Shown: piece by piece, positions 2,751 through 57,243 of the stretch | Position numbering within the stretch: position 1 is the first letter of the stretch | Layout of the letters: the number at the start of each line of letters is the position of its first letter | Assembly (NCBI GenBank): GCA_964016885.1 | Contig: OZ024743.1 | Location: forward strand, 176,514,001-176,578,000 | Reading direction: 5' to 3' | Origin: Eledone cirrhosa | Taxonomy: Eukaryota | DNA: 64,000 nucleotides | Made by a program: the position numbers and the translations under genes | Notes under the pieces: generated by a model | Databases searched by the model: none | What the model saw: only the letters and a program-made list of their open reading frames with translations | Told to the model about the DNA's origin: nothing

Positions 2751-3093
2751 ATAAATATACGATATTAACAAATGGAAACTATATTTATAAAACCATATTT
2801 ATTTCATTATACATATTTCAAGGATACCATGTTAAATTATGGTATGCCTTCATCAAACAAAAAAAAATATATACCAGTTTTATAAATAAACATTGACGTA
2901 CCCTTTCAATATGCAACCGTTACTTTTGGAAGACATCAGGAGGGTACGTCAATGTTTATTTATAAAACTGATATATATTGTATTTTGTCTGATGAAGGCA
3001 TACCATAATTTAACATGGTATCCTTGAAATATGTATAATGAAATAAATATGGTTTTATAAATATAGTTTCCATTTGTTAATATCGTATATTTA
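2751..3093. repeat. About 150-bp inverted repeat (fold-back of a PLE-type terminus) with a minimal hammerhead at 2989-3035 (+)
   Basis: 2751-2904 is approximately the reverse complement of 2941-3093; right arm reads CTGATGA-AGGcATACCAT...ATGGTATCCTT-GAAATATGTA. Confidence 0.65.
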
Positions 3094-9004: not shown

Positions 9005-12000
9005 GTTCTTTGAGTCTCAGTCATTGATGTTAGGTAACTGGAAAGTTTATTGAAATGAATATCAAGCCACTACCTGCAACCTCAGATATTCAGGACGTAT
9101 CGGAGGGTTCTTGCTGTTCCCAAAAAGCATGCTTTTGAAGTGTTCCAAAAAGCGAGGCGGGGCCAATTTTCTTTAACCATCCCCGGAATCCTTTTGAGAT
9201 AGTACCTAGTGCGCCTATGACAATCGGGACCACTTTGACTTCATGGCAGTTCCAAATCCTTTTTAACTCCCACTTTAAGTCCTGGTATCGGTTAATTTTC
9301 TCCCTCTCCTTCTCTTGCACTCTCGTGTCGAATGGGCAGGTCACATCCACAATCAGGCACGATATTTTTTCCTTGTCCAAAACCACCAGGTCAGGTCTAT
9401 TGTGTTCCAGTTTCTTGTCCGTCTGTATCCTAAAATCCCACAGCACCTTCACCTGATCGTTTTCTATCACCGACTCTGGCTTATGCTCATACCACTTCTC
9501 AGAATGTGGTAAATTGTTTACTTTGCATAGGTGCCAGTGGATCACCCTGCCCATCACATCATGTCTCCAGCCTTTATAATGAGTCTGGGCTAGGTGTTTA
9601 CACTCGGATACAATGTGAGCCACAGTCTCCTCTTTCTCTCTCCACAGATCCTGCACAGTGGGCTAGCTTCCTCCTTGTAAATATGGTGTTTCAACCACTT
9701 CGTTTTGAGGGCCTGATCTTGCGCAGCCATTAGCATTCCTTCTGTAGCCTTTTTAAGGTCTCATCTTTTCAACCAGTTCCATGTCTGTGGATCTCTGAAT
9801 TCAGTTTTCTCAAAGAAGGTACTATGAAGGGATTTTTCATGAAGGCTGCTCTTTCTCCTTGTTGTTATTTCCTCCTTGGACATCCCTGGTCTATTGTCCC
9901 CTCCTTCAGTACAATTCTGAGCATTGGCTCCTTACTATCAGTCACGTATTTGTGTAGGTTGTTTTTCTCCATCTGAACACAGTCCTCTATGCTGATAAGA
10001 CCTCTTCCACCTTCAGATCTCCTTAAGTAGAGTCTATCAACATCACTCCTCTTGTGGAACATGTTGTAGATAGTCAATAGCTTCCTAGTCTTCCTATCCA
10101 TTTTTTTTTTGTTCAGAAACATTCCATCTCAGAATTCCCGCACTGTACCTAACAATAGACACAGCTCGGGAATTTACTGCACTTATGACATTCCTACTGT
10201 TCAGATGTGACTTTAATACACTCCTTACTCTCCGAATGTATTCAGATCTTATCAATTCCTTCATTTTTTTGTTCTTGATGTCATCAGCCCCCAGAACACC
10301 CAAATACTTATATCCTTCTTCAGTGTCAATTTCCTTTATCATCTCATCTGGATTCCGCTGCTTCTGCTCAATTTACCCCTCTTCATCACAAGGACTCCAC
10401 ACTTACTAATACCAAATTGCATACATATATCATTGCTGAAAATACGGACAGTGTCAACAAGCACATCCAACTCCTTCTCACTCTTCCCGAAGAGCTTAAG
10501 ATCGTCCATGAAGAGGAGGTGATTGATGGTAAGCTCTCCCTTTCCCAACTTGTATCCTGCTCTCACCTTTCGCAGTATAATGGTCAGGGTCATCAGGGCA
10601 AGGACAAACAACAGAGGGGACAGACTATCTCCCTGGAAGATACTTCTCTTGATCTTCACGCCTCCCAAGGATTCTCCAGCTGATGTTAACTCTGTTTTCC
10701 AGGACTTCATACTTTTGCTCAACAACTGTCTGATGTTATCTGCCACCCTGAAGATCTCTAGGCTTTTGGTTATCCAAGAATGAGGTACCATGTCGAATGC
10801 CTTTTTGTAGTCTATCCATCCCATGGCAAGATCAGTGTGTCTCCTCTTGCAATTCCTCATTACCATCTTATCAATAAGTAACTGGTCCTTTGTACCACGT
10901 TACTTCTTTCGGCAGCCTTTCTGTTCGTCCGGTAACACGTTGTTTGTGTGGAGGTGATGGTTGATTTCCTCAGACACAATGTTTGTCAACAGTTTCCACA
11001 TTACGGACAGACATGTGATAGGTCTATAGTTGGTAACATCATTACCCTTGATTCGGTATTTCATTACCAGAACTGTGGTACCTTTTGTCAACCACTCTGC
11101 TACCTCACCCGACATCAAGCAGTCATTGAACATGTTTGTCAGTTTCGGGTGGAGGGATGTTATATTTTTAATCCAATACCCCATCTGGGCCTGGTGATTT
11201 CCAGTTGGTTAGTTTTTTGGCCTGCCCCTTAAGAGTTTCAACTGTGATACTTAAATCAGTTTGTTGGTGTGCCTGTTCACTGATCTCCTTTTGTACTGTC
11301 TCAATCCACACTGCCTGATCATTATGTTCAACATCCTGCTCCCATATTCCTCTCCAGAATGTCCTAGTTTGTTCCGCCTCATGGATCAAGTCGTTGCTTC
11401 TTTCTTTCCCTTCAAGCTGTCCAAACAACATATTCTGGTTGTTGTCAAACATGCGGTTCTGTCTATCCAGACTGACTCTGCTCTCGTATCGCCTAATTTT
11501 TGCACTCTTTGCTACAATGCGTTGCTTCAGTTCCTCTATGATAATATTTAGCTTTTTCCTCTTAGTTTTGTACTTTATTTCCAGTCTATTTTTAGTGTCT
11601 ATGTTTTTTAGTGTCCCATTCAATAGGGACTCAATCTTACCAATGTCATTTCTCATTTCCTTGATTTGACCATTCAGTCGTTTCTTCCAACAAGGTTCTG
11701 ATCTTTCTTGTTTGTTGTTTCCTCTCGCTTTTATACCAAGTAGTTTCCTCACCGCATTTACTGTTGCTTTGAGGATATTGTTGCACTGGTGAAGGCTACT
11801 CGCCTCAAGGTATGATATGACTTTGTTTACCTTAGCTGTTGTTTCTTTTAACTTTTTCCTGTCTACAAATCTTAGGTTCATAGGTTTCCCACTATCATTG
11901 TTCAATCCATCTACCAGTAAGTTTAGGATATCAACCAAATCTTGTCCTAGTCCGTCAGCATTCATCTCCTCAATGGCCGTATCTTTTTTCCAGGTATTAT

Positions 12001-12597
12001 TTATTTCAGCATTCAGATCATTGTCTGCTTCGGAGGGTTCCTCCGTTCTCTCAACCTCTTCACCTTCATTTCCCACTGGCTCGTTTGCCTGACATACTCC
12101 ACTCATCATTTCCAACCTAATCTCTCTGCTCAGTTCCTCCAGTTCCAGCTCGCTTATCCACCCATTAGTTCTTATTACATGAGCCTGCCCGGCTAATTTT
12201 TGTTCATCTAATTTAAATAGTCCAATCTCGTTCCAGATATTATGCATCCGTTTCCTATAGCCTTTCTCCTTGGGGTTACTCTTCAGGTAACATTGCATAA
12301 CAGTTCTATTAAATTCTTTCGTCCTGTTGGTTCTGGTCCCTTTCCTTCTTCTTCTTCTCCCTCCGACGCCAGCAGTATTTGGTTGACAGCCAGGTCCCTG
12401 CTGCTGAGCCAGGGAACACCTGCTGGGTGAGAGTCTGTCACATGACATTCCAGTCTCCACTTCATCGTTATTCGAACTGTTTAGGTTCGCCATTTAAACA
12501 CTCTTATCGAAGATTGGTGAATGTATGGTTACTTAACCACCAGTGATTTCATCACCCCCGGTGATTTTAGTGTGGCACTATCATGCTGTAGACGAAC
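9005..12597 (-). mobile_element. Near full-length, frameshifted R4/Dong-clade RLE non-LTR retrotransposon
   Basis: Successive minus ORFs: N-terminal [94 protein letters not shown] (PD-D/ExK); 3' end abuts (TTA)n at about 8977-9004. 5' boundary approximate. Confidence 0.9.
9090..12493 (-). pseudogene. Disrupted RT / zinc-knuckle / restriction-like endonuclease ORF
   Basis: One polyprotein split into at least 6 ORF pieces (11168-12493, 10900-11184, 10339-10866, 10094-10342, 9865-10122, 9090-9656). Confidence 0.9.
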
Positions 12598-13327
12598 ATA
12601 AACAAACAAACAAACAAATAGGTAAAAAACAAAACAAAAAAGAATAAGCATAAGTTTCATTGTAATGTAATGTTTGAATGTCTGACTTAGTTTCTTTTTT
12701 TTTCCTTCTCTGTCTGTTTGTTTTTCTTTTCTTTTTTTCTTTTCTTTACGTTTTTCGTTGCTGCTGTGCTGTTTTGATTTTGATTTTTGTTTTTTTGATT
12801 TTATGACCGGGTCATCAAATCAGTCTATTTATATATTTTGATGCCTTCCTCTTTTAGTGGGGACACTACGATGCATGTGTTAGCAGGAGGTAGTGGGGGA
12901 GAATAGCGGCGGTAGCGATAATGAGGCAGTGGTGGTGGTGATGTGATCGTAGTACTGTAGTGATGGTGTTGAAGTTGAAGTAGAAATAGAAGTTGAGGTA
13001 ACTTGACTAGAGTTTTTGGCGTTGTAGTGGTGATGGTGGCGGTGTCGGTGTTGGCGGTGAAATTATTTGCCTGTCTGTCCAATTAGCCATTTTGCCATTT
13101 TTCTCTTTTTCGACTATAACATTTCTGATCCAAAATTAAATATTAAATATTGGGGCCCTGTGCCGTAATATGATGCGTTGCGGCTTGCTGAGCGTAAACA
13201 ACTGTAATCTTATACTTCATTTGTAATAAGAATTATTCTATCACAGTTGTTTTAAATAAGTAAAAATCAAAATCTTACGGGAGCGATTCCATAACGATAT
13301 ATCCACCGTGTGCGTTTTCTTCTTCTT

Positions 13328-13394
<67 letters not shown>

Positions 13395-13395
<1 letters not shown>

Positions 13396-15142
13396 AGTTG
13401 CATTTATCTTGCTTTATGTTCATACGAGTTATCACCAAGTCACAACCAGTGACCTCAAGAGACAACAAGGTCCGCCATGTTCAAGGAAGAACATACATAC
13501 TCACACATGCATCTTTAGTGTTTAGACTTGTGATGTACTTATATTGACAGAATCTTCCTTAGTATATGGGCAGTTCCCATTAGTACTATCTTTTGTATTT
13601 CTCCTATACGCGGGTTTCCTGGGATCTGCGATAAGTAATCATTAGACCCATTAGGTATCATTCCCAGAGCGCCTACAACCACTGGTATTGTTTTAGTTCT
13701 CAATTTCCACATTTTTCCAATTTCTATCTCCAGGTCCTTATACTTGCTCAATTTTTCAAATGTTTTTATAGATACATTCTTGTCTATTGGAACGGACATA
13801 TCAATTAGCAGGCATACCCTCTTTTTAAAGTCCTTCAATATTATATCAGGTCTATTTGCATCTATTTTTCGGTCTGTTTGGATGCTAAAGTTCCACAAGA
13901 TTGAGATGCGATCTTTTTCAAGTATGGGAGGTGGTTGATGCTCCCACCAATTCTTTTGATGGGACAGGTCAAAATGCTTACACATTATCCAATGCATGTA
14001 TTGTGCAGCTCTGTCATGCCTGTTTAGGTATTCGGTTGGAGCTATAGGACTGCACATTGAAATTATATGGTCAATGGTCTCTGGTTGTTTTTTACATACA
14101 CGGCATAATGGGCTGCATCCATTTTTTATTATGTTGGCTTGGGATTTTTTGTTGGCAGACACTGATCTTGTGCCGATATAATCAGTCCTTCAGTCTCCGA
14201 TTTCAGTCCAGAGGATGCCAACCACTGATGGCTTAAAGTTTTGTCAACATCAGGATTGTTAGCTCGTTCTGGGTATTTTCCATACAGAGGCTTTTCTTGC
14301 CATTTCTTAGTCAGTTTCTGTAGCAGTTCTTTCTTTGCAGTTACTTTTACCTGCTTTGCTTTTTCTGTGTTTCCATTTCAGCAGTAAATGGGACTTCTGG
14401 AATGTGTAGTCCATTACTGTATCTTTGTGCATCTTTTGTAATGGAATATGATCTTTTGATGCTTTCGTGTTTCAAAACGAGTTTGATCATCCAATCATGT
14501 GATTCCCTTAGATATGTAGATAAGCCAATTGTTGCAGTTTTCAACGCAATGTCTAACTGGATTAACCCACGTCCCCCTTCTTTCCTAGGGAGATATATTC
14601 TATCTGTATCTGCCTTAGGGTGATGCATTCTGTGCATGGTTAAGAATTTTTGAATTTTTGTATCGAGCCTACGGATCTCTGTGCTTGACCAGTTGATGAC
14701 ATTGTAACTGTAGGTTACTACTGGTATGGCAAGCGTGTTTATGGCATCGATCCTATTCCTTGTATTCAATGCCGTTCTTAAGATTGCTCTTACTCTGCGG
14801 TAACATTCCTTCCTTATCCTTTCCCTCATTGTCGAGTGCTTGATTCCGTCTCCTTCACAAACACCTAGATATTTGTAAGTTTTTTCTTGATCAAGTTCTC
14901 TTATCACATTCCCCCCGATCAAGATTAATGTCTGAACTCTTCAGCAGCTTTCCTCTGGTGAACGTTGCTTTGGCGCATTTATCTAGTCCAAACTCCATTT
15001 TAATGTCATCACTGAACTGCTCCACAGTGGATAATAGCCCTTGCAATTGTTCATCATTTTTTGCAAATAGTTTCAGGTCATCCATGTAGAACAAGTGATT
15101 AATAGTTTTGTCATAGACTTTATATCCATGTTTTGTTTCATT
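13395..15142 (-). mobile_element. 5'-truncated R4/Dong-clade element, second family, copy A
   Basis: FYMDDLKLF, YKYLGV, CRVC..ETIDHIISMC, RHD, RPDI..IDMSVP..K..KY; (TTA)n on both sides. Confidence 0.92.
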
Positions 15143-15163
15143 TTATTATTATTATTATTATTA

Positions 15164-16919
15164 CAGTTGCATTTATCTTGCTTTATGTTCATACGAGTTA
15201 TCACCAAGTCACAACCAGTGACCTCAAGAGACAACAAGGTCCGCCATGTTCAAGAAAGAACATACATATTCACACATGCATCTTTAGTGTTTAGACTTGT
15301 GATGTACTTATATTGACAGAATCTTCCTTAGTATATGGGCAGTTCCCATTAGTACTATCTTTTGTATTTCTCCTATACGCGGGTTTCCTGGGATTTGCGA
15401 TAAGTAATCATTAGCCCCCTTAGGTATAATTCCCAGAGCGCCTACAACCACTGGTATTGATTTAGTTCTCAATTTCCACATTTTTCCAATTTCTATCTCC
15501 AGGTCCTTATACTTGCTCAATTTTTCAAATGTTTTTATATTTTATAGATACATTCTTGTCTATTGGAACAGACATATCAATTAGCAGGCATACCCTCTTT
15601 TGAAAGTCTTTCAATATTATATCAGGTCTGTTTGCATCTATTTTTTGGTCTGTTTGGATGCTAAAGTTCCACAAGATTGAGATGTGATCTTTTTCAAGTA
15701 TGGGAGGTGGTTGATGCTCCCACCAATTCTTTTGATGGGGCAGGTCAAAATGCTTACACATTATCCAATGTATGTATTGTGCAGCTCTGTCATGCCTGTT
15801 TAGGTATTCGGTTGGAGCTATAGGACTGCACATTGAAATTATATGGTCAATGGTCTCTGGTTGTTTTTTGCATACACGGCATAATGGGCTGCATCCATTT
15901 TTTATTATGTTGGCTTGGTAAATTTTGTTGGCAGACACTGATCTTGTGCCGATATAATCAGTCCTTCAGTCTCCGATTTCAGTCCAGAGGATGCCAACCA
16001 CTGATGGGTTAAAGTTTTGTCAACATCAGGATTGTTATCTCGCTCTGGGTATTTTCCATAGAGAGGCTTTTCTTGCCATTTCTTAGCCAGTTTCTGTAGC
16101 AGTTCTTTCTTTGCAGTTACTTTTACCTGCTTTGCTTTTTCTGTGTTTTCCATTTCAGCAGTAAATGGGACTTCTGAAATTTGTAGTCCATTACTGTATC
16201 TTTGTGCATCTTTTGTAATGGAATATGATCTTTTGATGCTTTCGTGTTTCAAAACGAGTTTGATCATCCAATCATGTGATTCCCTTAGATATGTAGATAA
16301 GCCAATTGTTGCAGTTTTCAACGCAATGTCTAACTGGATTAACCCACGTCCCCCTTCTTTCCTAGGGAGATATATTCTATCTGTATCTGCCTTAGGGTGA
16401 TGCATTCTGTGCATGGTTAAGAATTTTTGAATTTTTGTATCGAGCCTACGGATCTCTGTGCTTGACCAGTTGATGACATTGTAACTGTAGGTTACTACTG
16501 GTATGGCAAGCGTGTTTATGGCATCGATCCTATTCCTTGTATTCAATGCCGTTCTTAAGATTGCTCTTACTCTGCGGTAACATTCCTTCCTTATCCTTTC
16601 CCTCATTGTCGAGTGCTTGATTCCGTCTCCTTCACAAACACCTAGATATTTGTAAGTTTTTTCTTGATCAAGTTCTCTTATCACATTCCCCCCGATCAAG
16701 ATTAATGTCTGAACTCTTCAGCAGCTTTCCTCTGGTGAACGTTGCTTTGGCGCATTTATCTAGTCCAAACTCCATTTTAATGTCATCACTGAACTGCTCC
16801 ACAGTGGATAATAGCCCTTGCAATTGTTCATCATTTTTTGCAAATAGTTTCAGGTCATCCATGTAGAACAAGTGATTAATAGTTTTGTCATAGACTTTAT
16901 ATCCATGTTTTGTTTCATT
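15164..16919 (-). mobile_element. 5'-truncated R4/Dong-clade element, copy B (chimeric)
   Basis: Near-identical to A and C; same 5' truncation point as A; (TTA)n spacers. Confidence 0.92.
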
Positions 16920-16940
16920 TTATTATTATTATTATTATTA

Positions 16941-18968
16941 CAGTTGCATTTATCTTGCTTTATGTTCATACGAGTTATCACCAAGTCACAACCAGTGACC
17001 TCAAGAGACAACAAGGTCCGCCATGTTCAAGAAAGAACATACATACTCACACATGCATCTTTAGTGTTTAGACTTGTGATGTACTTATATTGACAGAATC
17101 TTCCTTAGTATATGGGCAGTTCCCATTAGTACTATCTTTTGTATTTCTCCTATACGCGGGTTTCCTGGGATTTGCGATAAGTAATCATTAGACCCCTTAG
17201 GTATCATTCCCAGCGCACCTACAACCACTGGTATTGATTTAGTTCTCAATTTCCACATTTTTCCAATTTCTATCTCCAGGTCCTTATACTTGCTCAATTT
17301 TTCAAATGTTTTTATATTTTATAGATACATTCTTGCCTATTGGAACAGACATATCAATTAGCAGGCATACCCTCTTTTGAAAGTCTTTCAATATTATATC
17401 AGGTCTGTTTGCATCTATTTTTCGGTCTGTTTGGATGCTAAAGTTCCACAAGATTAAGATGTGATCTTTTTCAAGTATGGGAGGTGGTTGATGCTCCCAC
17501 CAATTCTTTTGATGGGGCAGGTCAAAATGCTTACACATTATCCAATGTATGTATTGTGCAGCTCTGTCATGCCTGTTTAGGTATTCGGTTGGAGCTATAG
17601 GACTGCACATTGAAATTATATGGTCAATGGTCTCTGGTTGTTTTTTGCATACACGGCATAATGGGCTGCATCCATTTTTTATTATGTTGGCTTGGTAATT
17701 TTTTGTTGGCAGACACTGATCTTGTGCCGATATAATCAGTCCTTCAGTCTCCGATTTCAGTCCAGAGGATGCCAACCACTGATGGGTTAAAGTTTTGTCA
17801 ACATCAGGATTGTTATCTCGCTCTGGGTATTTTCCATAGAGAGGCTTTTCTTGCCATTTCTTAGCCAGTTTCTGTAGCAGTTCTTTCTTTGCAGTTACTT
17901 TTACCTGCTTTGCTTTTTCTGTGTTTTCCATTTCAGCAGTAAATGGGACTTCTGAAATTTGTAGTCCATTACTGTATCTTTGTGCATCTTTTGTAATGGA
18001 ATATGATCTTTTGATGCTTTCGTGTTTCAAACGAGTTTGATCATCCAATCATGTGATTCCCTTAGATATGTAGATAAGCCAATTGTTGCAGTTTTCAACG
18101 CAATGTCTAACTGGATTAACCCACGTCCTCCTTCTTTCCTAGGGAGATATATTCTATCTATATCTGCCTTAGGGTGATGCATTCTGTGCATGGTTAAGAA
18201 TTTTCGAATTTTTGTATCGAGCCTACGGATCTCTGTGCTTGACCAGTTGATGACATTGTTACTGTAGGTTACTACTGGTATGGCAAGCGTGTTTATGGCA
18301 TCGATCCTATTCCTTGCATTCAATTCCGTTCTTAAGATTGCTCTTACTCTGCGGTAACATTCCTTCCTTATCCTTTCCCTCATTGTCGAGTGCTTGATTC
18401 CGTCTCCTTCACAAACACCTAGATATTTGTAAGTTTTTTCTTGATCAAGTTCTCCTATCACGTTCCCCCGATCAAGATTAATGTCTGAACTCTTCAGCAG
18501 CTTTCCTCTGGTGAACGTTGCTTTGGCGCATTTATCTAGTCCAAACTCCATTTTAATGTCATCACTGAACTGCTTCACAGTGGATAATAGCCCTTGCAAT
18601 TGTTCATCATTTTTTGCAAATAGTTTCAGGTCATCCATGTAGAACAGGTGATTAATGGTTTTGACATAGACTTTATATCCATGTTTTGTTTCATTGAGCA
18701 TTTTACTTAATGGTATAAGTGCGATGCAGAATAAAAGCGGTGATAAAGAGTCACCCTGAAAAATTCCACAATTAATATTAACTTCTCCAGCTTCCAGTGA
18801 TTTTGTTTCACTATTCAAAAGGAGTGTCGTTTTCCATGTCTTCATACTGAATGACAAAAACCTCCTGACAACGGGGCATATTTTGAAAATATCTAACCAT
18901 TTTTCAATCCAACTGTGTGGCAAACTATCGAATGCTTTTTTATAATCTATCCAAGCAATCGATAGATC

Positions 18969-18970
<2 letters not shown>
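16941..18970 (-). mobile_element. 5'-truncated R4/Dong-clade element, copy C
   Basis: Extends further 5' ([28 protein letters not shown]); followed by (TTA)n at 18970-19010. Confidence 0.92.
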
Positions 18971-19010
<40 letters not shown>

Positions 19011-19857
19011 GTTGTTGTTGTTGTTTATTGGCTCCGACCTTACTATTTAATCATTAAACACAGTCAAAAATGACTTGCAAATGCTGGAAACACTTATCTT
19101 GTGGACTGCTATAAAAATGCTATTATACATCCTACATTGTATTATTAATAGGACCTTATCGCGAAATAATCTCAAAGCCTACATGATATTTTCTAGTTTA
19201 TATCGAATCTATATGTTCTCTATTATATTGGAAGTCTGCATGCTTCTTTATTGTAACGAAACTTATTAATCAGAATGTTTTTAATGCTCTTTTCAGCAGA
19301 TGCCCTACTCTTTGGTCAGTAGAATTTGCATCCAACATTTTTCAAGCTCCTCTTTCATATATTTTACTAGCGGATTTATATCGAATTGAAAACAAATAAA
19401 GCACAAATTATTTCCTTTTCTTTATTCATATAGCATACACATTTACCAATTACCTTAAGATTTTAGAACTTATTCTTCATAAGAAATTGTAAATTCTGAG
19501 TTGTTTTCAGTAGTGCTTCCTTACGTGAATTTTGTACGTGACCTGAAGCCATTTATAAATATCGGATTTAACTCCGAATACATATTTATACATAACCCAT
19601 GAGTTATTGTTACTGAAGTTATGTCTTTCTAGCCGTCAACATAATGAAAAGGAATTCTATTATTCACAATTTTGTTTATAATTTAATCAGTAGGTTTAAG
19701 AAACTAACTTTCCGTGGTTTAAAAAGAAGACCTAAGCAGATTATGATGAAACGTAAAGACAATGAAACAACACACAATGATCAACATTCGAAGTTGCCGA
19801 GCAAAAATCACCTGCCATGACTAAACATACGTGAATATGACTATATGTATATTTATA

Positions 19858-20225: not shown

Positions 20226-23200
20226 ATGGTATGGTATGGTATGTTATGGTGTGGTATGGTATGCTATGATATGCTATGGTGTGGTGTGGTATGGTATGGT
20301 ATGGTATGGTGTGGTATGGTATGCTATGATATGTTATGGTGTGGTGTCGTATGGTATGGTATGGTATGGTATGGTATGGTGTGGTATGGTATGCTATGAT
20401 ATGCTATGGTGTGCTGTGGTATGGTATGGTATGGTATGGTATGGTATGGTATGGTATGGTATGGTATGGTATGTTATGGTGTGGTATGGTATGCTATGAT
20501 ATACTATGGTGTGGTATGGTGTGGTATGGTATGGTGTGGTATGGTATGCTATGATATGCTATGGTGTGGTGTGGTATGGTATGGTATGGTATGTTATGGT
20601 GTGGTATGGTATGGTATGGTGTGGTATGGTATGCTATGATATGTTATGGTGTAGTGTGGTATGGTATGGTATGGTATGTTATGGTGTGGTATGGTATGCT
20701 ATGATATGCTATGGTGTGGTGTGGTATGGTATGGTATGGTATTATATGGTATGGTATGCTATGATATGTTATGGTGTGGTGTGGTATGGTATGGTATGGT
20801 ATTATGTGGTATGGTATGCTATGATATGTTATGGTGTGGTATGGTATGTTGTGGTATGGTATGGTATGTTGTGGTGTGGTATGGTATGTTGTGGTATGGT
20901 ATGTTGTGGTGTGGTATGGTATGATATGTTGTGGTGTGGTATGGTATGATATGCTGTGGTATGGTATGGTATGGTGTGGTGTGGTATGGATTGTTGTGGT
21001 GTGGTATGGTATGGTATGTTGTGGTATGGTATGATATGTTGTGGTGTGGTATGGCATGGTATGTTGTGGTGTGGTATGGTATGGTATGTTGTGGTGTGGT
21101 ATGATATGTTGTGGTGTGGTATGGTATGGTATGTTGTGGTGTGGTATGCTATGCTATGTTGTGGTATGGTATGGTATGTTGTGGTGTGGTATGGTATGAT
21201 ATGTTGTTGTGTGGTATGGTATGATATGTTGTTGTATGGTATGATATGTTGTGGTGTGGTATGGTATGGTATGTTGTGGTGTGGTATGGTATGGTATGTT
21301 GTGGTGTGGTATGGTATGGTATGTTGTGGTGTGGTATGGTATGGTATGTTGTGGTATGGTATGGTATGTTGTGGTGTGGTGTGGTATGGTATGGTATGTT
21401 GTGGTGTGGTGTGGTATGGTATGGTATGTTGTGGTGTGGTGTGGTGTGGTATGGTATGTTGTGGTGTGGTATGGTATGATATGTTGTGGTGTGGTATGGT
21501 ATGATATGCTGTGGTATGGTATGGTATGGTGTGGTGTGGTATGGATTGTTGTGGTGTGGTATGGTATGGTATGTTGTGGTATGGTATGATATGTTGTGGT
21601 GTGGTATGGCATGGTATGTTGTGGTGTGGTATGGTATGGTATGTTGTGGTATGGTATGGTATGTTGTGGTGTGGTATGGTATGTTGTGGTATGGTATGAT
21701 ATGTTGTGGTGTGGTATGTTGTGGTGTGGTATGGTATGGTATGTTGTGGTGTGGTATGGTATGATATGTTGTGGTATGGTATGGTATGATATGTTGTGGT
21801 ATGGTATGGTATGGTATGTTGTGGTGTGGTATGGTATGATATGTTGTGGTGTGGTATGGTATGATATGTTGTGGTATGGTATGGTATGATATGCTGTGGT
21901 ATGGTATGGTATGTTGTGGTGTGGTATGGTATGTTGTGGTGTGGTATGGTATGTTGTGGTATGGTATGGTATGATATGTTGTGGTGTGGTATGGTATGGT
22001 ATGTTGTGGTGTGGTATGGTATGGTATGTTGTGGTATGGTATGGTATGGTATGTTGTGGTGTGGTATGGTATGATATGTTGTGGTGTGGTATGGTATGGT
22101 ATGTTGTTGTATGGTATGATATGTTGTGGTGTGGTATGGTATGGTATGTTGTGGTGTGGTATGGTATGGTATGTTGTGGTGTGGTATGGTATGGTATGTT
22201 GTGGTGTGGTATGGTATGGTATGTTGTGGTATGGTATGGTATGATATGTTGTGGTGTGGTATGGTATGGTATGTTGTGGTGTGGTGTGGTATGGTATGAT
22301 ATGTTGTGGTGTGGTATGGTATGGTATCTTGTGGTATGGTATGGTATGGTATGTTGTGGTATGGTATGGTATGGTATGTTGTGGTATGGTATGGTATGGT
22401 ATGTTGTGGTGTGGTATGGTATGATATGTTGTGGTGTGGTATGGTATGGTATGTTGTTGTATGGTATGATATGTTGTGGTGTGGTATGGTATGGTATGTT
22501 GTGGTGTGGTATGGTATGGTATGTTGTGGTGTGGTATGGTATGGTATGTTGTGGTGTGGTATGGTATGGTATGTTGTGGTATGGTATGGTATGATATGTT
22601 GTGGTGTGGTATGGTATGGTATGTTGTGGTGTGGTGTGGTATGGTATGATATGTTGTGGTGTGGTATGGTATGGTATCTTGTGGTATGGTATGGTATGGT
22701 ATGTTGTGGTATGGTATGGTATGATATGTTGTGGTGTGGTATGTTTTGGTATGTTGTGGTGTGGTATGGTATGATATGCTGTAGTATGGTATGGTATGGT
22801 ATGGTATGGTATGGTATGGTATGTTGTGGTATGGTATGGTAAGGTATCTTGTGGTATGGTATGGTATGGTATGGTATATTGTGGTATGGTATGGTATGTT
22901 GTGGTATGGTATGGTATGATATGTTGTGGTGTGGTATGGTATGTTGTGGTGTGGTATAGTATGGTATGTTGTGGCATGGTATGGTATGATATGTTGTGGT
23001 GTGGTATGGTATGATATGTTGTGGTATGGTATGGTATGGTATGTTGTGGTGTGGTATGATATGTTGTGGTATGGTATGGTATGTTGTGGTGTGGTATGGT
23101 ATTTTGTGGTATGGTATGGTATGTTGTGGTGTGGTATGGTATGTTATGGTATGGTATAGTATGGTATAGAATGGTATGGTATGTTGTGTGTATGGTATGT

Positions 23201-24220
23201 TGTGGTGTGGTATGGTATGGTATGATATGTTATGGTGTTGTATGGTATGATATGTTGTGGTGTGGTATGATATGTTGTGGTGTGGTATGGTATGGTATGT
23301 TGTGGTATGGTATGGTATGTTGTGGTAGGGTATGGTATGGTATGGTATGTTGTGGTGTGGTATGGTATGGTATGTTGTGGTGTGGTATGGTATGATATGT
23401 TGTTGTGTGGTATGGTATGATATGTTGTGGTATGGTATGGTATGATATGTTGTGGTATGGTATGGTATGTTGTGGTGTGGTATGGTATGATATGTTGTGG
23501 TGTGGTATGGTATGATATGTTGTGGTGTGGCATGGTATGATATGTTGAGGTATGGTATGGTATGTTGTGTTGTGGTATGGTATGTTGTGGTGTGGTATGG
23601 TATGATATGTTGTGGTGTGGTGTGGTATGATATGTTGTGGTATGGTATGGTATGTTGTGGTGTGGTATGGTATGGTATGTTGTGGTGTGGTATGGTATGA
23701 TATGTTGTGGTGTGGTATGGTATGATATGCTGTGGTATGGTATGGTATGTTGTGGTGTGGTATGGTATGTTGTGGTATGGTATGGTATGTTGTGGTATGG
23801 TATGGTATGATATGTTGTGGTGTGGTATGGTATGGTATGTTGTGGTATGGTATGGTATGGTATGTTGTGGTGTGGTATGGTATGGTATGTTGTGGTGTGG
23901 TATGGTATGATATGTTGTGGTGTGGTATGGTATGATATGTTGTGGTATGGTATGGTATGATATGCTGTGGTATGGTATGGTATGTTGTGGTGTGGTATGG
24001 TATGGTATGTTGTGGTATGATATGTTGTGGTGTGGTATGGTATGGTATGGTATGTTGTAGTGTGGTATGGTATGGTATGTTGTGGTATGGTATGGTATGG
24101 TATGTTGTGGTGTGGTATGGTATGAGATGTTGTGGTGTGGTATGGTATGGTATGTTGTGGTATGGTATGATATGTTGTGGTATGGTATGGTATGGTATGT
24201 TGTGGTGTGGTATGGTATGA
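20226..24220. repeat. About 4-kb pentamer satellite (ATGGT/GTGGT/ATGTT/ATGAT variants)
   Basis: Directly visible 5-bp periodicity, one phase shift near 23186-23191; internal duplications of 555 and 350 bp. Confidence 0.97.
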
Positions 24221-24277
24221 TATTTGTGTGTTTGTGTGGTGTTTGTACGTGCATGTGTGTCTATTTGTGTGTCCGTA

Positions 24278-24344
<67 letters not shown>

Positions 24345-24651
24345 ATAACTCCAATATAAATATACTTAGCATTACTAAAAACGCAGATCATTTACATATT
24401 GAAATGTTTGTCAATGCTCTGATAGAGCCAGCCAATTTTTATACATTTTGTTTATTTTACTAGGTTCTTTATAAATCCTTTACACATGCAATACTGCTTG
24501 TTGCCCAGAGAAGATTTGATTCAACATTATACACAGACACACGCACACCCACACACTCACACACCCACACATATATATATATATATACACACTTATATGC
24601 ATATATATATGTGTGTATGTATACCTATATACATACATATATATATATACA

Positions 24652-24700
<49 letters not shown>

Positions 24701-24726
24701 ATATATATATATATATATATATATAT

Positions 24727-24763
<37 letters not shown>

Positions 24764-24829
24764 GAAGAGAGAAGAAACATTTAGATATAATTAGTAATAA
24801 AATGTATCATACCTAAACTGCTCCTAAAT

Positions 24830-24919
24830 TCCTCGACTACGTAGTTTCGTGGCATAAACAAAAACAATATATCATAAAGATATAGAGTCCTTGCGAGGTC
24901 TGCCGACTTATCAAGAGGA
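24830..24919 (-). ncRNA. Type I hammerhead ribozyme, U3-A8 variant (unit 1)
   Basis: TCCTC-TTGATAA-GTcGGCA...TGCCAC-GAAAC TACGTA GTC|GAGGA. Confidence 0.85.
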
Positions 24920-25424
24920 TACCTCATTTTACTAGTCTCAAGAACGCGTCTACACGACGTGAGAAAGAATCCCAAAAGGCGGAGGGGGAGATAGTCACGC
25001 GATATAACGGTCGAGAAACAGAGCTAAGCCTCTTATAACCCCGAAGAAAATACCACGGAGGCGGAGGGGGTATTTATATCGAGGCCGTAGAAGAGGTGGT
25101 GAAGAAGGCGAGAAGTATGAGTAATGGAAGCCTTCCAGCTGTCCCCACACTTCAAAGATTGCTCGACCAGAGGGAGTTATTAACAATATAATTAGAAACA
25201 CACAGATACATGCGGACACACACATATATACATGAATGCATCCGCACCCAACTGTGAGTTAAGGGTGCCAACTTCACCGATGTTGCTCAATGAATGACTG
25301 GGACAGACCAATTCAGTTGAACTAGACTGAACCAGTATCAGAGTTAAAAATACATTATGAAGAGAGAAGAAACATTTAGATATAATTAGTAATAAAATGT
25401 ATCATACCTAAACTGCTCCTAAAT

Positions 25425-25514
25425 TCCTCGACTACGTAGTTTCGTGGCATAAACAAAAACAATATATCATAAAGATATAGAGTCCTTGCGAGGTCTGCCG
25501 ACTTATCAAGAGGA
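25425..25514 (-). ncRNA. Type I hammerhead ribozyme, U3-A8 variant (unit 2)
   Basis: Same sequence as 24830-24919, offset 595. Confidence 0.85.
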
Positions 25515-26019
25515 TACCTCATTTTACTAGTCTCAAGAACGCGTCTACACGACGTGAGAAAGAATCCCAAAAGGCGGAGGGGGAGATAGTCACGCGATAT
25601 AACGGTCGAGAAACAGAGCTAAGCCTCTTATAACCCCGAAGAAAATACCACGGAGGCGGAGGGGGTATTTATATCGAGGCCGTAGAAGAGGTGGTGAAGA
25701 AGGCGAGAAGTATGAGTAATGGAAGCCTTCCAGCTGTCCCCACACTTCAAAGATTGCTCGACCAGAGGGAGTTATTAACAATATAATTAGAAACACACAG
25801 ATACATGCGGACACACACATATATACATGAATGCATCCGCACCCAACTGTGAGTTAAGGGTGCCAACTTCACCGATGTTGCTCAATGAATGACTGGGACA
25901 GACCAATTCAGTTGAACTAGACTGAACCAGTGTCAGAGTTAAAAATACATTATGAAGAGAGAAGAAACATTTAGATATAATTAGTAATAAAATTTATCAT
26001 ACCTAAACTGCTCCTAAAT

Positions 26020-26109
26020 TCCTCGACTACGTAGTTTCGTGGCATAAACAAAAACAATATATCATAAAGATATAGAGTCCTTGCGAGGTCTGCCGACTTA
26101 TCAAGAGGA
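26020..26109 (-). ncRNA. Type I hammerhead ribozyme, U3-A8 variant (unit 3)
   Basis: Same sequence as 24830-24919, offset 1190. Confidence 0.85.
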
Positions 26110-26345
26110 TACCTCATTTTACTAGTCTCAAGAACGCGTCTACACGACGTGAGAAAGAATCCCAAAAGGCGGAGGGGGAGATAGTCACGCGATATAACGG
26201 TCGAGAAACAGAGCTAAGCCTCTTATAACCCCGAAGAAAATACCACGGAGGCGGAGGGGGTATTTATATCGAGGCCGTAGAAGAGGTGGTGAAGAAGGCG
26301 AGAAGTATGAGTAATGGAAGCCTTCCAGCTGTATCTGTGTGTTTC

Positions 26346-26376
<31 letters not shown>

Positions 26377-26907
26377 GAAGAGGAGAGAGAGTGAGAATCT
26401 TTATTCTCATTTCACATTTTGAACGTTGTTTTCGGTCAATATATATGGTTGCTCTATTAGGCTCTCTATCTATGAATTTGGTATTTTTTCTGTATTGAAA
26501 ACTTGAAACTAGGCAATATCTAGGAAGGACTGAGTAAATATACCCCCAACAGTTTTTTATTTATACCTATTTTGAACAATTTTCTGCTTCAAATATATTT
26601 CTCAGGCACCAAATATTGAGAGTGATATATTTACAATGCTATCGTGTTCATTCCTAAAATAGTATAATATGATTAGAAGTGGCGATGCACGATCTTATTT
26701 ATGTCTGTAAATATTCTGAAATGGTCTTCCTGTATGTGAAGAAATGACTAGATTAGAATCATTATATAATATATAATCATTGTCATCGTCATTATCGCCG
26801 TCAGTCATCAACGTCGTCATTGACATCTACCTCACCTTCGTCATTGTTGTCGTTGTGGCTGATGTAATCACCATCATTTCAACAGTCATTGCCGCCATTA
26901 TCAACAG

Positions 26908-27100
26908 CATAATTGTTTCTATTTTAGGCACAAGGCCAGCAAATTACCTAGTACATTTCTGGTACTTTATTTTATCGACCCCGTAAGGATGAAAGGCAAA
27001 GTTAACCTCAGCGGGATTTGAACTCATATCATAAAGGGACGTAACTCTATGCTTCAAAGCATGGTGTCCAACTCTCTACCGATACTGCCACTCCACCGCC
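26908..27100 (-). mobile_element. tRNA-derived SINE
   Basis: Reverse complement of the 53882 family, with A and B boxes. Confidence 0.8.
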
Positions 27101-27424
27101 CTATCATCAACAGCATAATGACCTTCATTCTAGCTGTTATTGCTGTCGTTATACTCATCTTCATCATCTTCGTCACCCTAATCGTTATCGTCAACATCAT
27201 TCTCATCATCATCATCAATATCCAAATGATTATCATCGTCGTTAGATTCACCATCAGCATCATCATCATCCTCAACGGCAGCCCAGCTACTCAAGCAACC
27301 TAATGGCTCCCCATGTGTGGTGGAATCCAACCCTAAATCTTTCTATCCCTCTTTTATATCATTTCGTATCTTAAATATTTCTCTTTCATAAGGATTATAT
27401 TTTGCTACTTCTACAGACGCCACA

Positions 27425-28335
<911 letters not shown>

Positions 28336-28837
28336 GTAGCGTTTTCATTTTCACTAGTTTTGGGGTATTTTCAATTTCAAGGTTTGACTTATTAACAAAA
28401 AAATAATGAATAAATAAATGAGTAATCAATTACATAACAAGAATAAAAGTAAAGTAAAAATAAAATTTTGAAACAATTCTTCTTAAGACCGACCACAAAT
28501 TACAACGTCGTATCCATCTTGAAAAAAAAACGTCTTTAAAGAAAAAAGAAAACAGAAAACTAAACAAACCAAAGCAGACGATATTCGAAGCTATGACGTC
28601 ATTGGAATAAATATAAACAAATAGAGAAATGAAAGAAAATATTCTATGTTGATTTAGAATGAAAGATTTCTATTTTTTTTTTTTTTAAATTACTTCTCAT
28701 GATATTTCAGTAGTAGTATCAATTTCCTTTGATTACCAATTACAAATAAATAAATATATAATTAAATATATATATATATATAAAAGCTGAATGAGATATA
28801 ATTCCCGTCTTTCTAAATCACTTTGAATGATTTATTG

Positions 28838-28906
<69 letters not shown>

Positions 28907-29050
28907 TGTGTGTATGTGTGTGTGCGTGTGTGTGTGCGCGTGTGTGTGTGTTTAGATCCAACGATCATCTTTGTAGTTCAGAAAGGAACTAGATCTCGAA
29001 ATTGATAATAGAGTAAGTATATATATATACATACATACATATATATATAC

Positions 29051-31127: not shown

Positions 31128-31150
31128 ATATATATATACATATATATATA

Positions 31151-31340
31151 TAACGAAGAAAATGTGGTAAGGAACCAGATGGACCATAACGCACCAAAGT
31201 ACTCAATACTTAGGCTAGTAGAGTGGGTAATAGGAACAAGTATGACCCCGACGGCAGAGCAGAAGCCGTTTCGACGGCTAATTCTGGACTCGGGAGTCGA
31301 AACGGCTTGAGCTTTGCCGTCGGGATCACACCTGTTCCTA
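31151..31340. mobile_element. Solo fold-back fragment of the pseudo-LTR of the 32.7-36.3 kb PLE
   Basis: 31151-31289 matches 36015-36153; 31296-31340 is an inversion of 31231-31275; embedded in (TA)n. Confidence 0.85.
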
Positions 31341-33793: not shown

Positions 33794-35981
33794 CTAGACT
33801 ACCCCCCCCCCCCGGGTCATTATCTGTTTGCATGCAGTTACCAGTTCGTCTTTCTTCTTTAGGAGTTGGTCCTTCGAAAACACCATTTGTAATATTTCCT
33901 CCGAGTATAAGTTACACGGACGGCGTCCTCCCGTGTAAGAGTTAGCTCTGGACAGTAAGCTCCAAGTGAGATTGTAGGTTATATTATAATCTTTGAGGTC
34001 CCAGATGTGGCCCGAAAGTGTAGTGGCATGACGCCGGGCCGGGTTTCGGAAAGTATGTCTGTGTAGGTAGAGCCGGGTCTTGAAGTCACAAGCGGTTAAT
34101 CCTATATAAGCTTTGTTGGAGGTGTCCGTCCTCACGTTGCACTGGTAGATCACATTACGATCTCGGCATCTGTTGTTGAGGGGGCACAGGGATCTATCAG
34201 GACAGTTACACCTCCTGGTCGGCTCTCCACTGCTGTCTAGGTTATTTCTTCCATAGGAGTTGAGTTTTTTGTTCTTAGAGGAGACGATGTTTTGTGCGAA
34301 GTTAGGTGTGGTGCTGTAGGGGAGTTTGATGGTGTTTTTGTTGATTATGTTGTGGTAGCTGTGTTGTAGTGGGAAGTGTTTTTCGATGAGCCTAAAGAAG
34401 ATTTTCCCGATAGGTGTTGTCAACTCGGCATTGTGTGTGGGGGGGGGAGAAGGGGGTTGAACCACGTTATGGTGCGTGAGCGGCGGTGTCCCCTGCTGGT
34501 TCCGCTAATGGAAGCTGGATAATAGGATATTTCCTCCCGAAAGCCACCCCGCTTGTGGGCCTGGTTGTAATAAGGTGCATGTTCGTCGAATATCTGCTCA
34601 TTAGCGGACAAACGAGATATGCGGAGGGAGATGTTTTTAATCAGGTTATTGGTGATGTTTCTAGGATGGTTCGACCGGTGGTGGATGTAATGCAGGTTGT
34701 CGTTTGGTTTCCTGTATGGGTAGTACAGATCATTATCGAGGTTAAATGTAACGTCCAGGAAGTTTACTCGGGTTAGGGACGTTTGTAGGGTTATTTTAAA
34801 TCCCCAGTCGCGGAAGAAGCTGCTTAATTGTTTACGGACCTGGCCTGTACTACTGGGGTTGTACCCTTTGAGAGTGAGGAGCCCATCATTACGGTACAAT
34901 CCACCGCCGAATGCAGGAAACATTTCGGTGAGTTTAAATAGTAGGAATAATCCTATAAGATCTGTGACCTCAGCCGAATCCGTCGCGGCAATACTGACGT
35001 CGAAGGGGGAGTCAGGAGCTCTCTTTATCCATTTGGAGTTGTCGAAAAGTAGGACTGTCTTCCTGGCGTGGAGGATGATATTTCTTTCCAGGTCTTGGAT
35101 GGGCGTGAGTGTTTCGTCAAATTTCAAGGCGGCCGTAAGGAGCAGTAAGGTAATTGATGCATAGTAACTCTCTATGTCAAACTGGATGAATTTTGTGTCT
35201 CGTTTGTCCTCCATATTGCTGAACCATGAGATTACTTCCTGGCTAAGTCTCTCGTTTTGCTTAACTTTTGGTATAACGCGGTCTAGGATTTTTTTACTGA
35301 TTCTCCCTATGTCGGACTTCGTTGGGTTTATAAGCCTGATGGATGGTTTACGGTCGAAGTCGGATTTGTGGTCATTCATTTTGAAGTAGGGAGTCCGTGG
35401 GTCTAGGGGTTCAGTGCGGTCAGCGAACCCGAGGCTGGAGGTAATTTGTTGCCCATCTCGATTTATGTCCTCGATACTTGAATGGTTAGCCTTTTTATAG
35501 GTGGAGTTTAGGCTGCTCCTGATCAGTGTGTGGTATCTGTCGGGGTTGACGAAGTAGAGGTTTCCAGTTTTGTCCGAGTGCACCATGATATCGTTGGTGT
35601 TTTCATACTCTGTTAATTTGCTACGGAGTTTTTGTAGGAATCTGTTGTGTGTGGGTTTGAATTTAATGCTCTTGACCAGTTGGAAAAGGTCATTCTCGAA
35701 AAGTGAGAGCATAGGGTTCGGTGGGGGAGATTTGTAGGTATTAAATCCAAATCTCTCCTTGGTATCCAAGTCCTGATTGTCGCAACATCTGTCGTAGAAA
35801 AAAGTTCTCCATCTTAGTCTTTTAGCAAAGAGGTCGATTTTTGGCGTGAGCATCCGAAGGTAAAGTTTTCTCGGTGGAACTGGGATGTTCTTGGTGGAGA
35901 AGTCGATGTTGTGTTTTCGCATGGTGCGGGTGAAAGAACTTGAGCTTGGCGGAAAAGTCTGGATAAGGCGTGGTAGGGTTG
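33794..35981 (-). pseudogene. PLE reverse transcriptase plus GIY-YIG endonuclease, frameshifted
   Basis: SDKTGNLY, RLINP, FIQFDIESYY, GLYRNDGL (YRDD mutated), NFLDV, SNHP, WFNP; after a frameshift in a G-run near 34440: CNC-x5-CPL, VIYQC...AYIGLT...KTRLYLH, CNL..EE. Confidence 0.9.
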
Positions 35982-36419
35982 GGAAGTGCTCTAGTATGGA
36001 AATAGGAGCTAGATGACGAAGGAAATGTGGTAAGGAACCAGATGGACCATAACGCACCAAAGAACTCAATACTTAGGGTAGTAGAGTGGGTAATAGGAAC
36101 AGGTATGACACCGATGGCAGAGCTCAAGCCGTTTCGATGGCTAATTCTGGACTAAATAAGAATTTTTAGCCTGGTAAATAAATAGCCGAACTTTTCAGGG
36201 GGTAATTCCTTATATGGGAAGATACTAATTGTCAAAAGGATTGGTCAAACATTTGTTGTAAAGACAGATGATTCTATCATGGCATTTAGTGGGAGGTAGG
36301 AATTACCCCCTGAGAAGTTTAGCTTTGGCCTTTTAAGTTCTATTTCGCTGTCCTCTCTGATTTGCCTATCGGCTAGGTCATTTCTATGATTGGATATTAT
36401 TTTAATTTCTATGTTGTCT

Positions 36420-37008
36420 ATGTTACCGTCATGTTGTTGTCTGGCGTGTTCGTATTGTACTGAACAGTTTTTTCTTCCTTTTAGCTCCCCTCAGTGTTGG
36501 TCTATCCTTTCACCTATGTTACGAACTGTCTCGCCTATGTATTTTGTTGTCATGTTTCTGTAAGTACCCTCTGTACATCTTATGCTATAGACTACGTTTC
36601 TAGTTTTACAGGGGGTTTACTTTACATATAATACATTTCCTATTAGTACAGTGGGTTTTCTTAAAAGGGTATGTTTTGCTGATCAGGGATTTTATGGTGG
36701 TTCCTGGCTGTTCTACCACCTTAATCTTTAAGTGGGTCTTTCTCAGGGCCTTTCTACACTGGTTAGCTAATTTTGCTCCAGGGGTAGCGTCCACGAACAT
36801 GACACTCTGGTATCTCTGGTTGTCGTACCATGAGGTGGCTTTCCCTATCTTATGTTTAGTCCTATCTAAGCTATTCCATGATTTTCTCCTGTATAATGGG
36901 CAAATTCCTTTCATGTCCAGTTCTATGAGGGTCTTATACTTCTCCGTGGCTCCTTCATATACTCTGATTCTGTCTCTTTGGTTGTAGCCAGAGAACTGCA
37001 TGCGGTTG
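36420..37008 (-). pseudogene. 3' fragment of another PLE family (thumb/linker plus GIY-YIG)
   Basis: FVDATPG..LA..KVVEQPG..PF..C-x4-C-x2-C then, in a shifted frame, NVVYSIRC...KYIGETVRNIGERIDQH. Confidence 0.8.
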
Positions 37009-37036
37009 ATATATTTATATATATATATATATTTAA

Positions 37037-37140
<104 letters not shown>

Positions 37141-37572
37141 GTATGTATATATGTATATATATACATGATAAATTCAAGAGTAATATACCTAACGGATATT
37201 TCGATCCTAATCATAATAATAATCATTAGCTGGCTGAATGACTGGCTTTTTTGAGGAAGAAAATTACTTTTATTACGTGAAAGATATATAGGAGAAGATA
37301 TAAATAGATAACGATTATATTAATTTAGATGTTATTTGCATTCTCTATGATTGCTTTTATTAGCTTAGATTTGTTAGCTTAAGTTAAGAGTGCGGATATA
37401 TTCCTGTATCTGACATTCGAATGTTTGTATAACGAGGTAACATTAAAGGATATTTGAAATATAATAAATATATTGGTGTATTTTGTATCTGGAATAGAGA
37501 TAGACGAGCGAAGTGTGAGTGTGGGGAGAAGTATGTTTACATCATGATCTCATACACATTTACAAGTAGACT

Positions 37573-42711: not shown

Positions 42712-42839
<128 letters not shown>

Positions 42840-42842
42840 ATG

Positions 42843-42938
42843 TCGGTGTCATACATTTTCCTATTACCCACTCTACTACCCTAAGTATTGAGTACTCTGA
42901 TGCGTTATGGTCCATCTGGTTCCTTACCACAACACCTT

Positions 42939-42941
<3 letters not shown>
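42843..42941 (+). mobile_element. Short solo 3' pseudo-LTR fragment of the 32.7-36.3 kb PLE family
   Basis: Reverse complement of 36015-36115, lying between microsatellites. Confidence 0.8.
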
Positions 42942-56556: not shown

Positions 56557-56626
<70 letters not shown>

Positions 56627-57082
56627 AGTGTAATTTTCTACACAAAACGAAGGTTATAGAGAAAATTGAGGTTGGTAATGGCACATGGAATATATAAGAG
56701 ACAGAATACTTTTTTGTGAAAAAACATAATTTTATAAGGTAAGGAAATAATAAAGGGTATAAAAAATGACCGGTTTCGATGGGTCTGCAAAAGCCATCTT
56801 TTCAAATGTTGATTAATATTAAGAAAAATTAATAATACGAAGAGTTAAAATTTGAGACTTGAAAATTCAAGTATAAAATTCATTGTGGGATTTCATAGCA
56901 GTTTTCATCTAGGTAGCAACAACAGGTTGACTGCTGTGTCCCTTTCTGGTAGTGAATGAGAAGTTATTTGGGGTGTGGGTTATTTTATAAAGGTCAGATT
57001 TAGCAATAGCCAGCTGCTGGTCAGTGAGGGGGTGGAAGCAATATACACACACATACCTTCATCCACACATACATACACATAC

Positions 57083-57123
<41 letters not shown>

Positions 57124-57184
57124 CACACATACATACACACACACATACATATACATACACACACACACACACATATATACACAT

Positions 57185-57243
<59 letters not shown>

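Follow-up and report, generated by a model that had tools for sequence, protein, structure and literature searches.

A dispersed tandem hammerhead repeat of Eledone cirrhosa with a two-site insertion footprint likely left by a Penelope-type RT

Introduction

PLE insertions show inverted, 5'-truncated arms and a tail of 30-40 bp that is often present on one side only, and the origin of their tandem and inverted structures has been stated to be open (PMC8557442). A purified PLE protein, Poseidon of Anolis, cuts and extends both target strands, and its RT initiates at two internal positions, between which the tail lies; the protein is a predicted dimer, and the hammerhead proved dispensable for insertion in vitro (PMC11167929).

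For retrozymes, circles have been shown in coral, mussel and axolotl (PMC7229834), and just 1 of 9 predicted retrozyme dimers was found to cleave (10.64898/2026.07.22.740005). Their mobilisation by PLEs has so far rested on co-occurrence and pseudo-LTR homology (PMC7229834; 10.64898/2026.07.22.740005). Among hammerheads, U3-A8 is a known natural core, with about 1,300 matches around the Cercyon PLEs of Schistosoma mansoni (PMC4209133). Hammerheads with this core are stated to be active in vitro, and pseudoknot-stabilised hammerheads have also been described (PMC3088659).

Here we analyse a stretch of 64,000 nt from Eledone cirrhosa (GCA_964016885.1, contig OZ024743.1, positions 176,514,001 to 176,578,000), referred to as the window, together with the genome-wide family to which one of its insertions belongs.

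Results

A tandem 595-nt repeat set in a (TA)n tract

The insertion consists of 2.65 near-identical 595-nt units on the minus strand, set in a (TA)n target that extends over 24571-24760 on its left side and 26350-26376 on its right side, much as an earlier note on this DNA had described it (2.6 non-coding units of 595 bp in (TA)n). Numbering the unit from the first base 3' of the predicted cleavage site, the main arm (24759-26332, 1,574 nt, minus strand) runs from a truncated 5' end at unit 288 to a 3' end at unit 76, which we call site A, and its successive units differ at just 2 positions (25337 and 25399). A second, inverted arm of 25 nt (26330-26354, plus strand, unit 220-244) overlaps the main arm by 3 nt and ends at site B. 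A random inversion at 26330-26354 can be dismissed, since this piece is a second arm that stops at the second fixed 3' end of the family (unit 244).

Site A as used by this insertion lies at 24759-24763 (minus strand; family range unit 76-81), with unit 72-80 recurring internally at 25350-25358 and 25945-25953, while site B (unit 238-249) has internal copies at 25181-25192 and 25776-25787, also on the minus strand. The 165-nt stretch between the two sites (25185-25349, minus strand) is the putative equivalent of the PLE tail and contains hairpins with compensatory changes, in an alignment that takes in one contaminated row (L219). The longest stop-free stretch in six frames of the repeat is only 87 aa, and a 2-nt deletion falls inside it in 39 of 135 copies, which together rule out a protein-coding unit. 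A GGTAT-type array based on a 5-nt repeat occupies 4 kb of the window (20228-24228), 530 nt from the insertion.

A variant type I hammerhead predicted to act as a dimer

One type I hammerhead is found per unit, on the minus strand; it combines stem I TCCTC/GAGGA with the core TTGATAA (U3-A8), a 59-nt stem II, GAAA and a palindromic stem III (ACTACGTAGT). The three copies, which the earlier note had also recognised, span 26020-26109, 25425-25514 and 24830-24919, with cuts predicted 3' of C17 at 26025, 25430 and 24835, respectively. Via the published U3-A8 covariation, the sequence agrees with the type I core at positions 3-9, 12-14, 15.1/16.1, H17 and the G10.1-C11.1 pair. Rfam hammerhead models gave no match at E<=5 across window positions 22000-29000, bearing out the expectation that standard searches overlook this ribozyme, and such a miss would be expected from the variant core and the 59-nt stem II.

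Stem II had been proposed to be long and branched. Its length holds, but the branching is ruled out by predicted folds, in which the unbranched form reaches -17.4 kcal/mol versus -8.0 kcal/mol for the branched one and an unbranched hairpin appears in 8/8 folded loci from other subfamilies. At the corresponding place, the older subfamily is predicted to form an uninterrupted 15-bp distal helix. The dimer-type character suggested for stem III is reproduced by the predictions: the two-copy duplex has -14.3 kcal/mol, whereas the monomer hairpin is unfavourable, and in a linear dimer stem III pairs across units with a predicted probability of about 0.9, calculated with a nested folding model in which the dimeric active fold cannot be represented.

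The core, stem and pseudoknot positions of the young unit are identical to the majority letters of the older subfamily (30 loci) at 53/53 positions, 19 of which belonged to the search pattern, compared with 354/468 elsewhere, a background slightly lowered by TA flank within the alignment. Stems are thus conserved among copies, contrary to what would have refuted the earlier note, and the difference argues that the hammerhead is under constraint between subfamilies. The pseudoknot is a predicted 5-bp pairing within 24895-24925 (minus strand) between GAGGU in a bulge of stem I (24921-24925) and ACCUC in an internal loop of stem II (24895-24899); since both segments, although complementary, are invariant between subfamilies and show no covariation, it stays a prediction.

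The cut-to-cut monomer (24835-25429, and another at 25430-26024, minus strand) has 42% GC and a predicted energy of -187 kcal/mol, much stronger than that of shuffles (z -8.0), and several of its hairpins carry compensatory changes. In the predicted fold of the consensus circle the stem I strands pair elsewhere, so the ribozyme would be off in the circle. Self-cleavage of the family's transcript is put forward as a prediction, with the step in 5' ends reported below as indirect support.

A dispersed family of thousands of copies

Searching the 3.0-Gb genome with the 19-nt 3' half of the motif returned 7,634 exact matches and none with the reversed control, which excludes both chance and a single-locus repeat. 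The first 100 of these matches correspond to 48 loci, giving by extrapolation roughly 3,700 loci in the genome; these 48 were not picked by likeness to the window and represent an unbiased sample. Cut-to-cut monomers measure 585-607 nt (n=78, duplicates included), and 595 nt is the length of one subfamily. An older subfamily, ~76-80% identical, has a layout matching that of the young units, and arrays of 4-5 units are present at two loci (L058 and L232). These data support a young, non-coding family of dispersed hammerhead tandems that bears a PLE-type insertion signature.

Contigs from 4 of 6 sequencing runs, whose kind is unrecorded, were compared with the repeat and with the ORF of the PLE found in the window (see below). 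One run (X1) contained many repeat variants, while two others (X4 and X6, from organisms B and C) each yielded one contig of ~620 nt at a depth of ~8, and these could represent trace DNA or a relative. In run X5, minor contigs on the PLE ORF differed by A>G or T>C at 38 of 39 differences, a pattern that alleles can mimic and that was left out of account.

Arms end at two fixed sites, one of each per insertion

Nearly all arms have their 3' end at site A (unit 76-81) or at site B (unit 244-250), followed by (TA)n, and are variably truncated at the 5' end. Among the 48 unbiased loci, the 23 single-arm insertions divide into 11 ending at A and 12 at B, while the clean head-to-head insertions combine A with B in 22/22 cases, with no A+A and no B+B; this tally leaves aside 3 irregular pairs with a non-standard end (L039, L055, L058) and an older inverted fragment next to L037, enters L043 once and includes L232, added by hand. 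Independent choice of ends would give A+B in half of the pairs (0.5^22 = 2.4e-7). The best-hit set (28 loci) contains 11 A+B pairs and 1 A+A pair (L018), and the older subfamily has one end of each kind in 11/11 loci with both ends detected, among 30.

Two other origins of this rule were considered. Fold-back of a single cDNA fails for 15/22 scored pairs, in a count where L043, a marginal case, was entered twice. Loss of palindromes is ruled out because the A+B pairs are themselves also long inverted repeats, with arms of 1,304 and 1,172 nt at L033.

The insertions thus display partial tandems, 5' truncation, inverted arms and a microsatellite target, and the two alternative 3' ends with a one-sided tail are seen in the 22/22 clean two-arm loci, in keeping with the PLE-type signature claimed from the window alone. 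The exception is tail length, which is 165 nt in this family instead of 30-40 bp; the two autonomous families described below have tails measuring 36 and ~70 nt. As the PLE tail is bounded by RT start sites in the Anolis system (PMC11167929), sites A and B are most simply two RT start sites enclosing a tail of 165 nt. The two fixed ends are therefore likely the footprint of a Penelope-type RT copying the repeat, and their spacing fits the known tail stretched to 165 nt; the pattern also agrees with a dimeric RT that primes the two DNA ends from a single RNA.

These ends also bear on the idea that the repeat spreads at the DNA level like a satellite, through rolling circle, conversion or unequal crossover, with the hammerhead as a relic. 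The homogeneity of units within a locus would agree with it, and local amplification of pseudo-LTRs has been proposed (10.64898/2026.07.22.740005), but the 3' ends are fixed, 5' truncation varies, arms can be inverted and the short arrays are scattered over (TA)n sites, all of which marks retroposition, and the RNA-strand fold is held by compensatory changes. We give this idea hardly any credence. That the family is a hammerhead repeat mobilised by a PLE through two-site priming is, in our view, very likely.

Autonomous PLEs of the same genome follow the same rule

The window also contains a young autonomous PLE (56622-60232, minus strand; ORF 57935-59887, RT and GIY-YIG), which we take to be Neptune-like from its cysteine-rich linker. 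It has a U3-A8 hammerhead at about 56770-56806 and an inverted copy at 60085, and 68 scored matches have 100% identity, many of them in a 777-aa frame. Its family inserts in (TA)n and has two ends separated by 36 nt, each arm taking a different one in 5/5 two-arm loci among 30. A second Neptune-like family (L180, L236-L265) shares the GIY-YIG ORF, the U3-A8 hammerhead and the (TA)n targets, and its ends, one per arm in 8/8 cases among 30, lie ~70 nt apart, more than the published 30-40 bp. The first of these ends is located ~76 nt past the cleavage site, like site A, which is only a hint of a partner. The long 3' UTR of the window PLE, rich in (TG)n/(TA)n, is carried along in the copies seen, and spread of microsatellites by this route is possible.

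Autonomous PLEs hence co-occur with the retrozyme-type family, and the unit could in principle be the pseudo-LTR or UTR of one of them, the loci being its truncated copies. The unit has all PLE end features, and published retrozymes often match PLE pseudo-LTRs: 24/57 Xenopus families matched known TEs, and 21 of the 22 TEs matched were PLEs. Furthermore, the set searched for a partner, comprising the two Neptune families (that of the window PLE and the second one) and 30 of the 150 listed GIY-YIG loci, leaves room for such an element. Against this, the search returned simple-repeat matches only, with no non-repetitive homology between the unit and either Neptune-like family tested, pseudo-LTRs included, and across 60 PLE loci the unit match among those listed is a retrozyme insertion in L191. 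In the 48 unbiased and 28 best-hit loci, arms lead head to tail into more units, or they end at TA, at the other arm or at unrelated flank; no arm extends into common upstream sequence, and none of these 76 mapped loci has an RT and GIY-YIG ORF collinear with the unit. The adjacent PLE ORF that would have reduced the repeat to a PLE UTR was not seen in the loci sampled, and we judge this origin very improbable. Shared end motifs (TTCATA/TTCTAA) were discarded as a partner signal, being weak and missing from the older subfamily.

A pattern combining the long stem II and the U3-A8 core with other stem III sequences produced 5 matches and no clear relative. Other U3-A8 hammerhead families were seen at L071-L100 (118 matches); in the most frequent of them the unit measures ~320 nt (L075/L076), stem II occurs in covarying variants and the two ends are ~35 nt apart, with one end of each kind in the two inverted pairs observed (L079/L080, L092/L093). 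Among the TA-targeting families sampled, U3-A8 is the prevailing core, and CUGANGA searches would miss such cores.

The window holds further repeats. Head-to-head fragments of another type I hammerhead repeat lie between (TA)n tracts at 2790-3090, with a C3-G8 core at ~2990 (plus strand) and a U3-G8 copy at ~2856 (minus strand). Three pieces of an additional TA-inserted repeat with a long hairpin are found at 31150-31330, 36030-36140 and 42830-42940, and similar sequence adjoins long-stem-II U3-A8 motifs in L101 and L104. Degenerate PLE-like RT/endonuclease fragments occur on the minus strand at 33794-36072, 36604-37319 and 48863-49309, the three having been scanned with no Pfam match, and several broken, partly tandem fragments of non-LTR retrotransposons cover 9090-19046 (minus strand), with an RVT_1 match at 18030-19046.

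One haplotype per insertion and the nature of the template

Divergence amounts to 0.7% within arms, 0.8% between the arms of a locus and 4.1% between loci. Locus-private variants are found in both arms at L034, L035, L036, L064 and L070, and a private 3-nt deletion is present in 4/4 units of L058. In total, 24 locus-private variant calls appear in every unit covering the site and 156 in some units only; counts of variants shared in some units are inflated by the composite locus L037 and by gap placement. Four loci (L001, L004, L035, L040) are mosaic at shared variants. The private variants present in all units favour a monomer bottleneck.

A genome-wide pattern search for TA-joined 5' ends gave, among the matches listed, at least 34 distinct ends, 29 after and 5 before the cleavage site (windows of 16 and 15 nt, respectively; p = 4e-5); they come from contig C1 and most of C2, in 100 of 517 rows. 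Among them, 7 lie at unit 1-3 and 8 at the TA of unit 9-10, while the TAs at 587-592 are unused. Another 31-nt window contains 32 junctions versus the 34 around the cleavage site, and these similar totals imply that the 29:5 step is partly an upstream deficit; a first control window (9 loci) was weak, its anchor being exact in only 7/67 units. The pile-up just after the predicted cut lends cleavage indirect support, as RT run-off from a cleaved end would leave the same pattern, but an RT stalling where the hammerhead folds is another possible cause of the step. Within the second window, 9/32 of the TA-joined ends fall at unit 374-375 (window 25055-25056 and 25650-25651), lacking TA microhomology, 22 nt 3' of a TATAAATA and adjoining a CCCCCTCCGCC box, and this position is possibly a transcript start or an RT stop.

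Arms read through the cleavage junction, so their template must have been longer than a cut linear monomer, which cannot be the sole template. Of the 29 arms that stop just 3' of the cleavage site, 16 do so at first pass and 13 with at least one junction already crossed. Stopping there after crossing one or more junctions (13/29) is not simply explained by a single closed circle, and favours some templates being linear, partly cut multimers.

This observation supports an account with linear templates only, in which the same two-site PLE insertion would act on multimeric transcripts partly cut by the hammerheads, circles would have no regular part, and tandems would be inherited from source arrays or rebuilt through RT template jumps. 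Besides the 13/29 arms that reach the cleavage-site stop after crossing an intact one, it would accommodate the cluster at unit 374-375 as the start of a linear transcript, and RNA that has not been processed is the main substrate in vitro (PMC11167929). Homogeneous arrays of one haplotype, moreover, are also expected from a homogeneous multimeric transcript, which counts against an explanation based on circles, as do the loci that are mosaic at shared variants. The 24 private calls found in all covering units, however, require that each haplotype either passed through a monomer bottleneck or had a separate homogeneous source array of its own; some arrays reach 4-5 units (L058, L232), and circles have been demonstrated for other metazoan retrozymes (PMC7229834). 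On balance, we consider an exclusively linear route unlikely, if a serious competitor, and circles as a regular template fairly probable.

Discussion

The reading that we prefer, and hold to be reasonably probable, is that a Neptune-type PLE RT-endonuclease copies the RNA of this family into (TA)n, with predicted circular monomers as a regular template. A tandem copy would be transcribed, and two hammerheads, joined by their palindromic stem III, would cleave incompletely after GUC. The monomers released could then be ligated into circles. There the predicted fold would switch the ribozyme off, and tandem arrays would be regenerated from these circles. A dimer of the PLE protein would cut both strands of (TA)n and prime one DNA end at site A and the other at site B of one RNA, and the two cDNAs, stopping variably, would be joined head to head, or one of them directly to the TA tract. 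Weighing against this reading are the A+A insertion at L018, the dispensability of the hammerhead in vitro (PMC11167929), the single cleaving dimer out of 9 (10.64898/2026.07.22.740005) and the lack of non-repetitive homology to either Neptune-like family tested.

More tentatively, a single circular RNA might account for the whole insertion, with the PLE dimer priming both (TA)n ends at obligatorily different sites and rolling round the circle, the 165-nt tail acting as a folded spacer that joins the sites and a GAGG/CCUC register switch silencing the ribozyme; an 8-bp A:B helix is possible according to predicted folds. If this were true, the family would document in the genome both the origin of tandem and inverted PLE structures and the use of retrozyme circles as templates. 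The family's young insertions number in the thousands, and the PLE footprint that they record on a retrozyme can be counted. The rule that emerges is sharp (each start site is used by one arm, and each insertion has one haplotype) and lends itself to tests with purified protein and the 595-nt RNA.

Comparison with known systems

In the literature searched, which lay outside Repbase, Dfam, subscription papers and supplements, we found neither a description of this family nor a count of one end of each kind per insertion. The closest systems are metazoan non-LTR retrozymes (PMC7229834; 10.64898/2026.07.22.740005), with which the family shares tandem units that are non-coding and each contain a type I hammerhead, a GC content below 45%, a dimer-type stem III, thousands of copies, co-occurring PLEs and a strongly folded monomer. 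It thus agrees with non-LTR retrozymes in every genomic feature compared, with cleavage and circular RNA as predictions; for published retrozymes both have been shown. It differs in its U3-A8 core, its 59-nt stem II and a unit exceeding the ~170-400 nt reported in 2020 (PMC7229834), although published units of 51-972 bp (10.64898/2026.07.22.740005) make 595 nt unremarkable. Nor do those two papers, in the parts consulted, describe short dispersed insertions in which a two-site PLE footprint can be read.

As regards the PLE tail (PMC8557442; PMC11167929), the family departs from the published accounts in having no ORF and a spacing of 165 nt versus 30-40, and in that the one-of-each rule has been counted across four families. 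Its hammerhead resembles the Cercyon and other natural U3-A8 hammerheads (PMC4209133; PMC3088659) in the core covariation, the G10.1-C11.1 pair and the palindromic 15.2-16.2 region; those are mostly single minimal motifs, while the one in the window has full stems, a long stem II and tandem units. Compared with the pseudoknot-stabilised hammerheads (PMC3088659), the candidate pairing here joins a stem I bulge to a stem II internal loop, with no covariation.

The class of the family, its U3-A8 core and its unit size all have precedent, which makes it a non-LTR retrozyme-type element and not a new system. The earlier note was right about a real element and approximately right about its class, did not notice the two-site priming rule, and overstated the element's novelty, given that U3-A8 cores in PLEs (PMC4209133) and units of up to 972 bp (10.64898/2026.07.22.740005) were already in print. 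What is added is the counted two-site, one-haplotype footprint that the family has in common with autonomous PLEs of the same genome, an advance that is mechanistic and not categorical.
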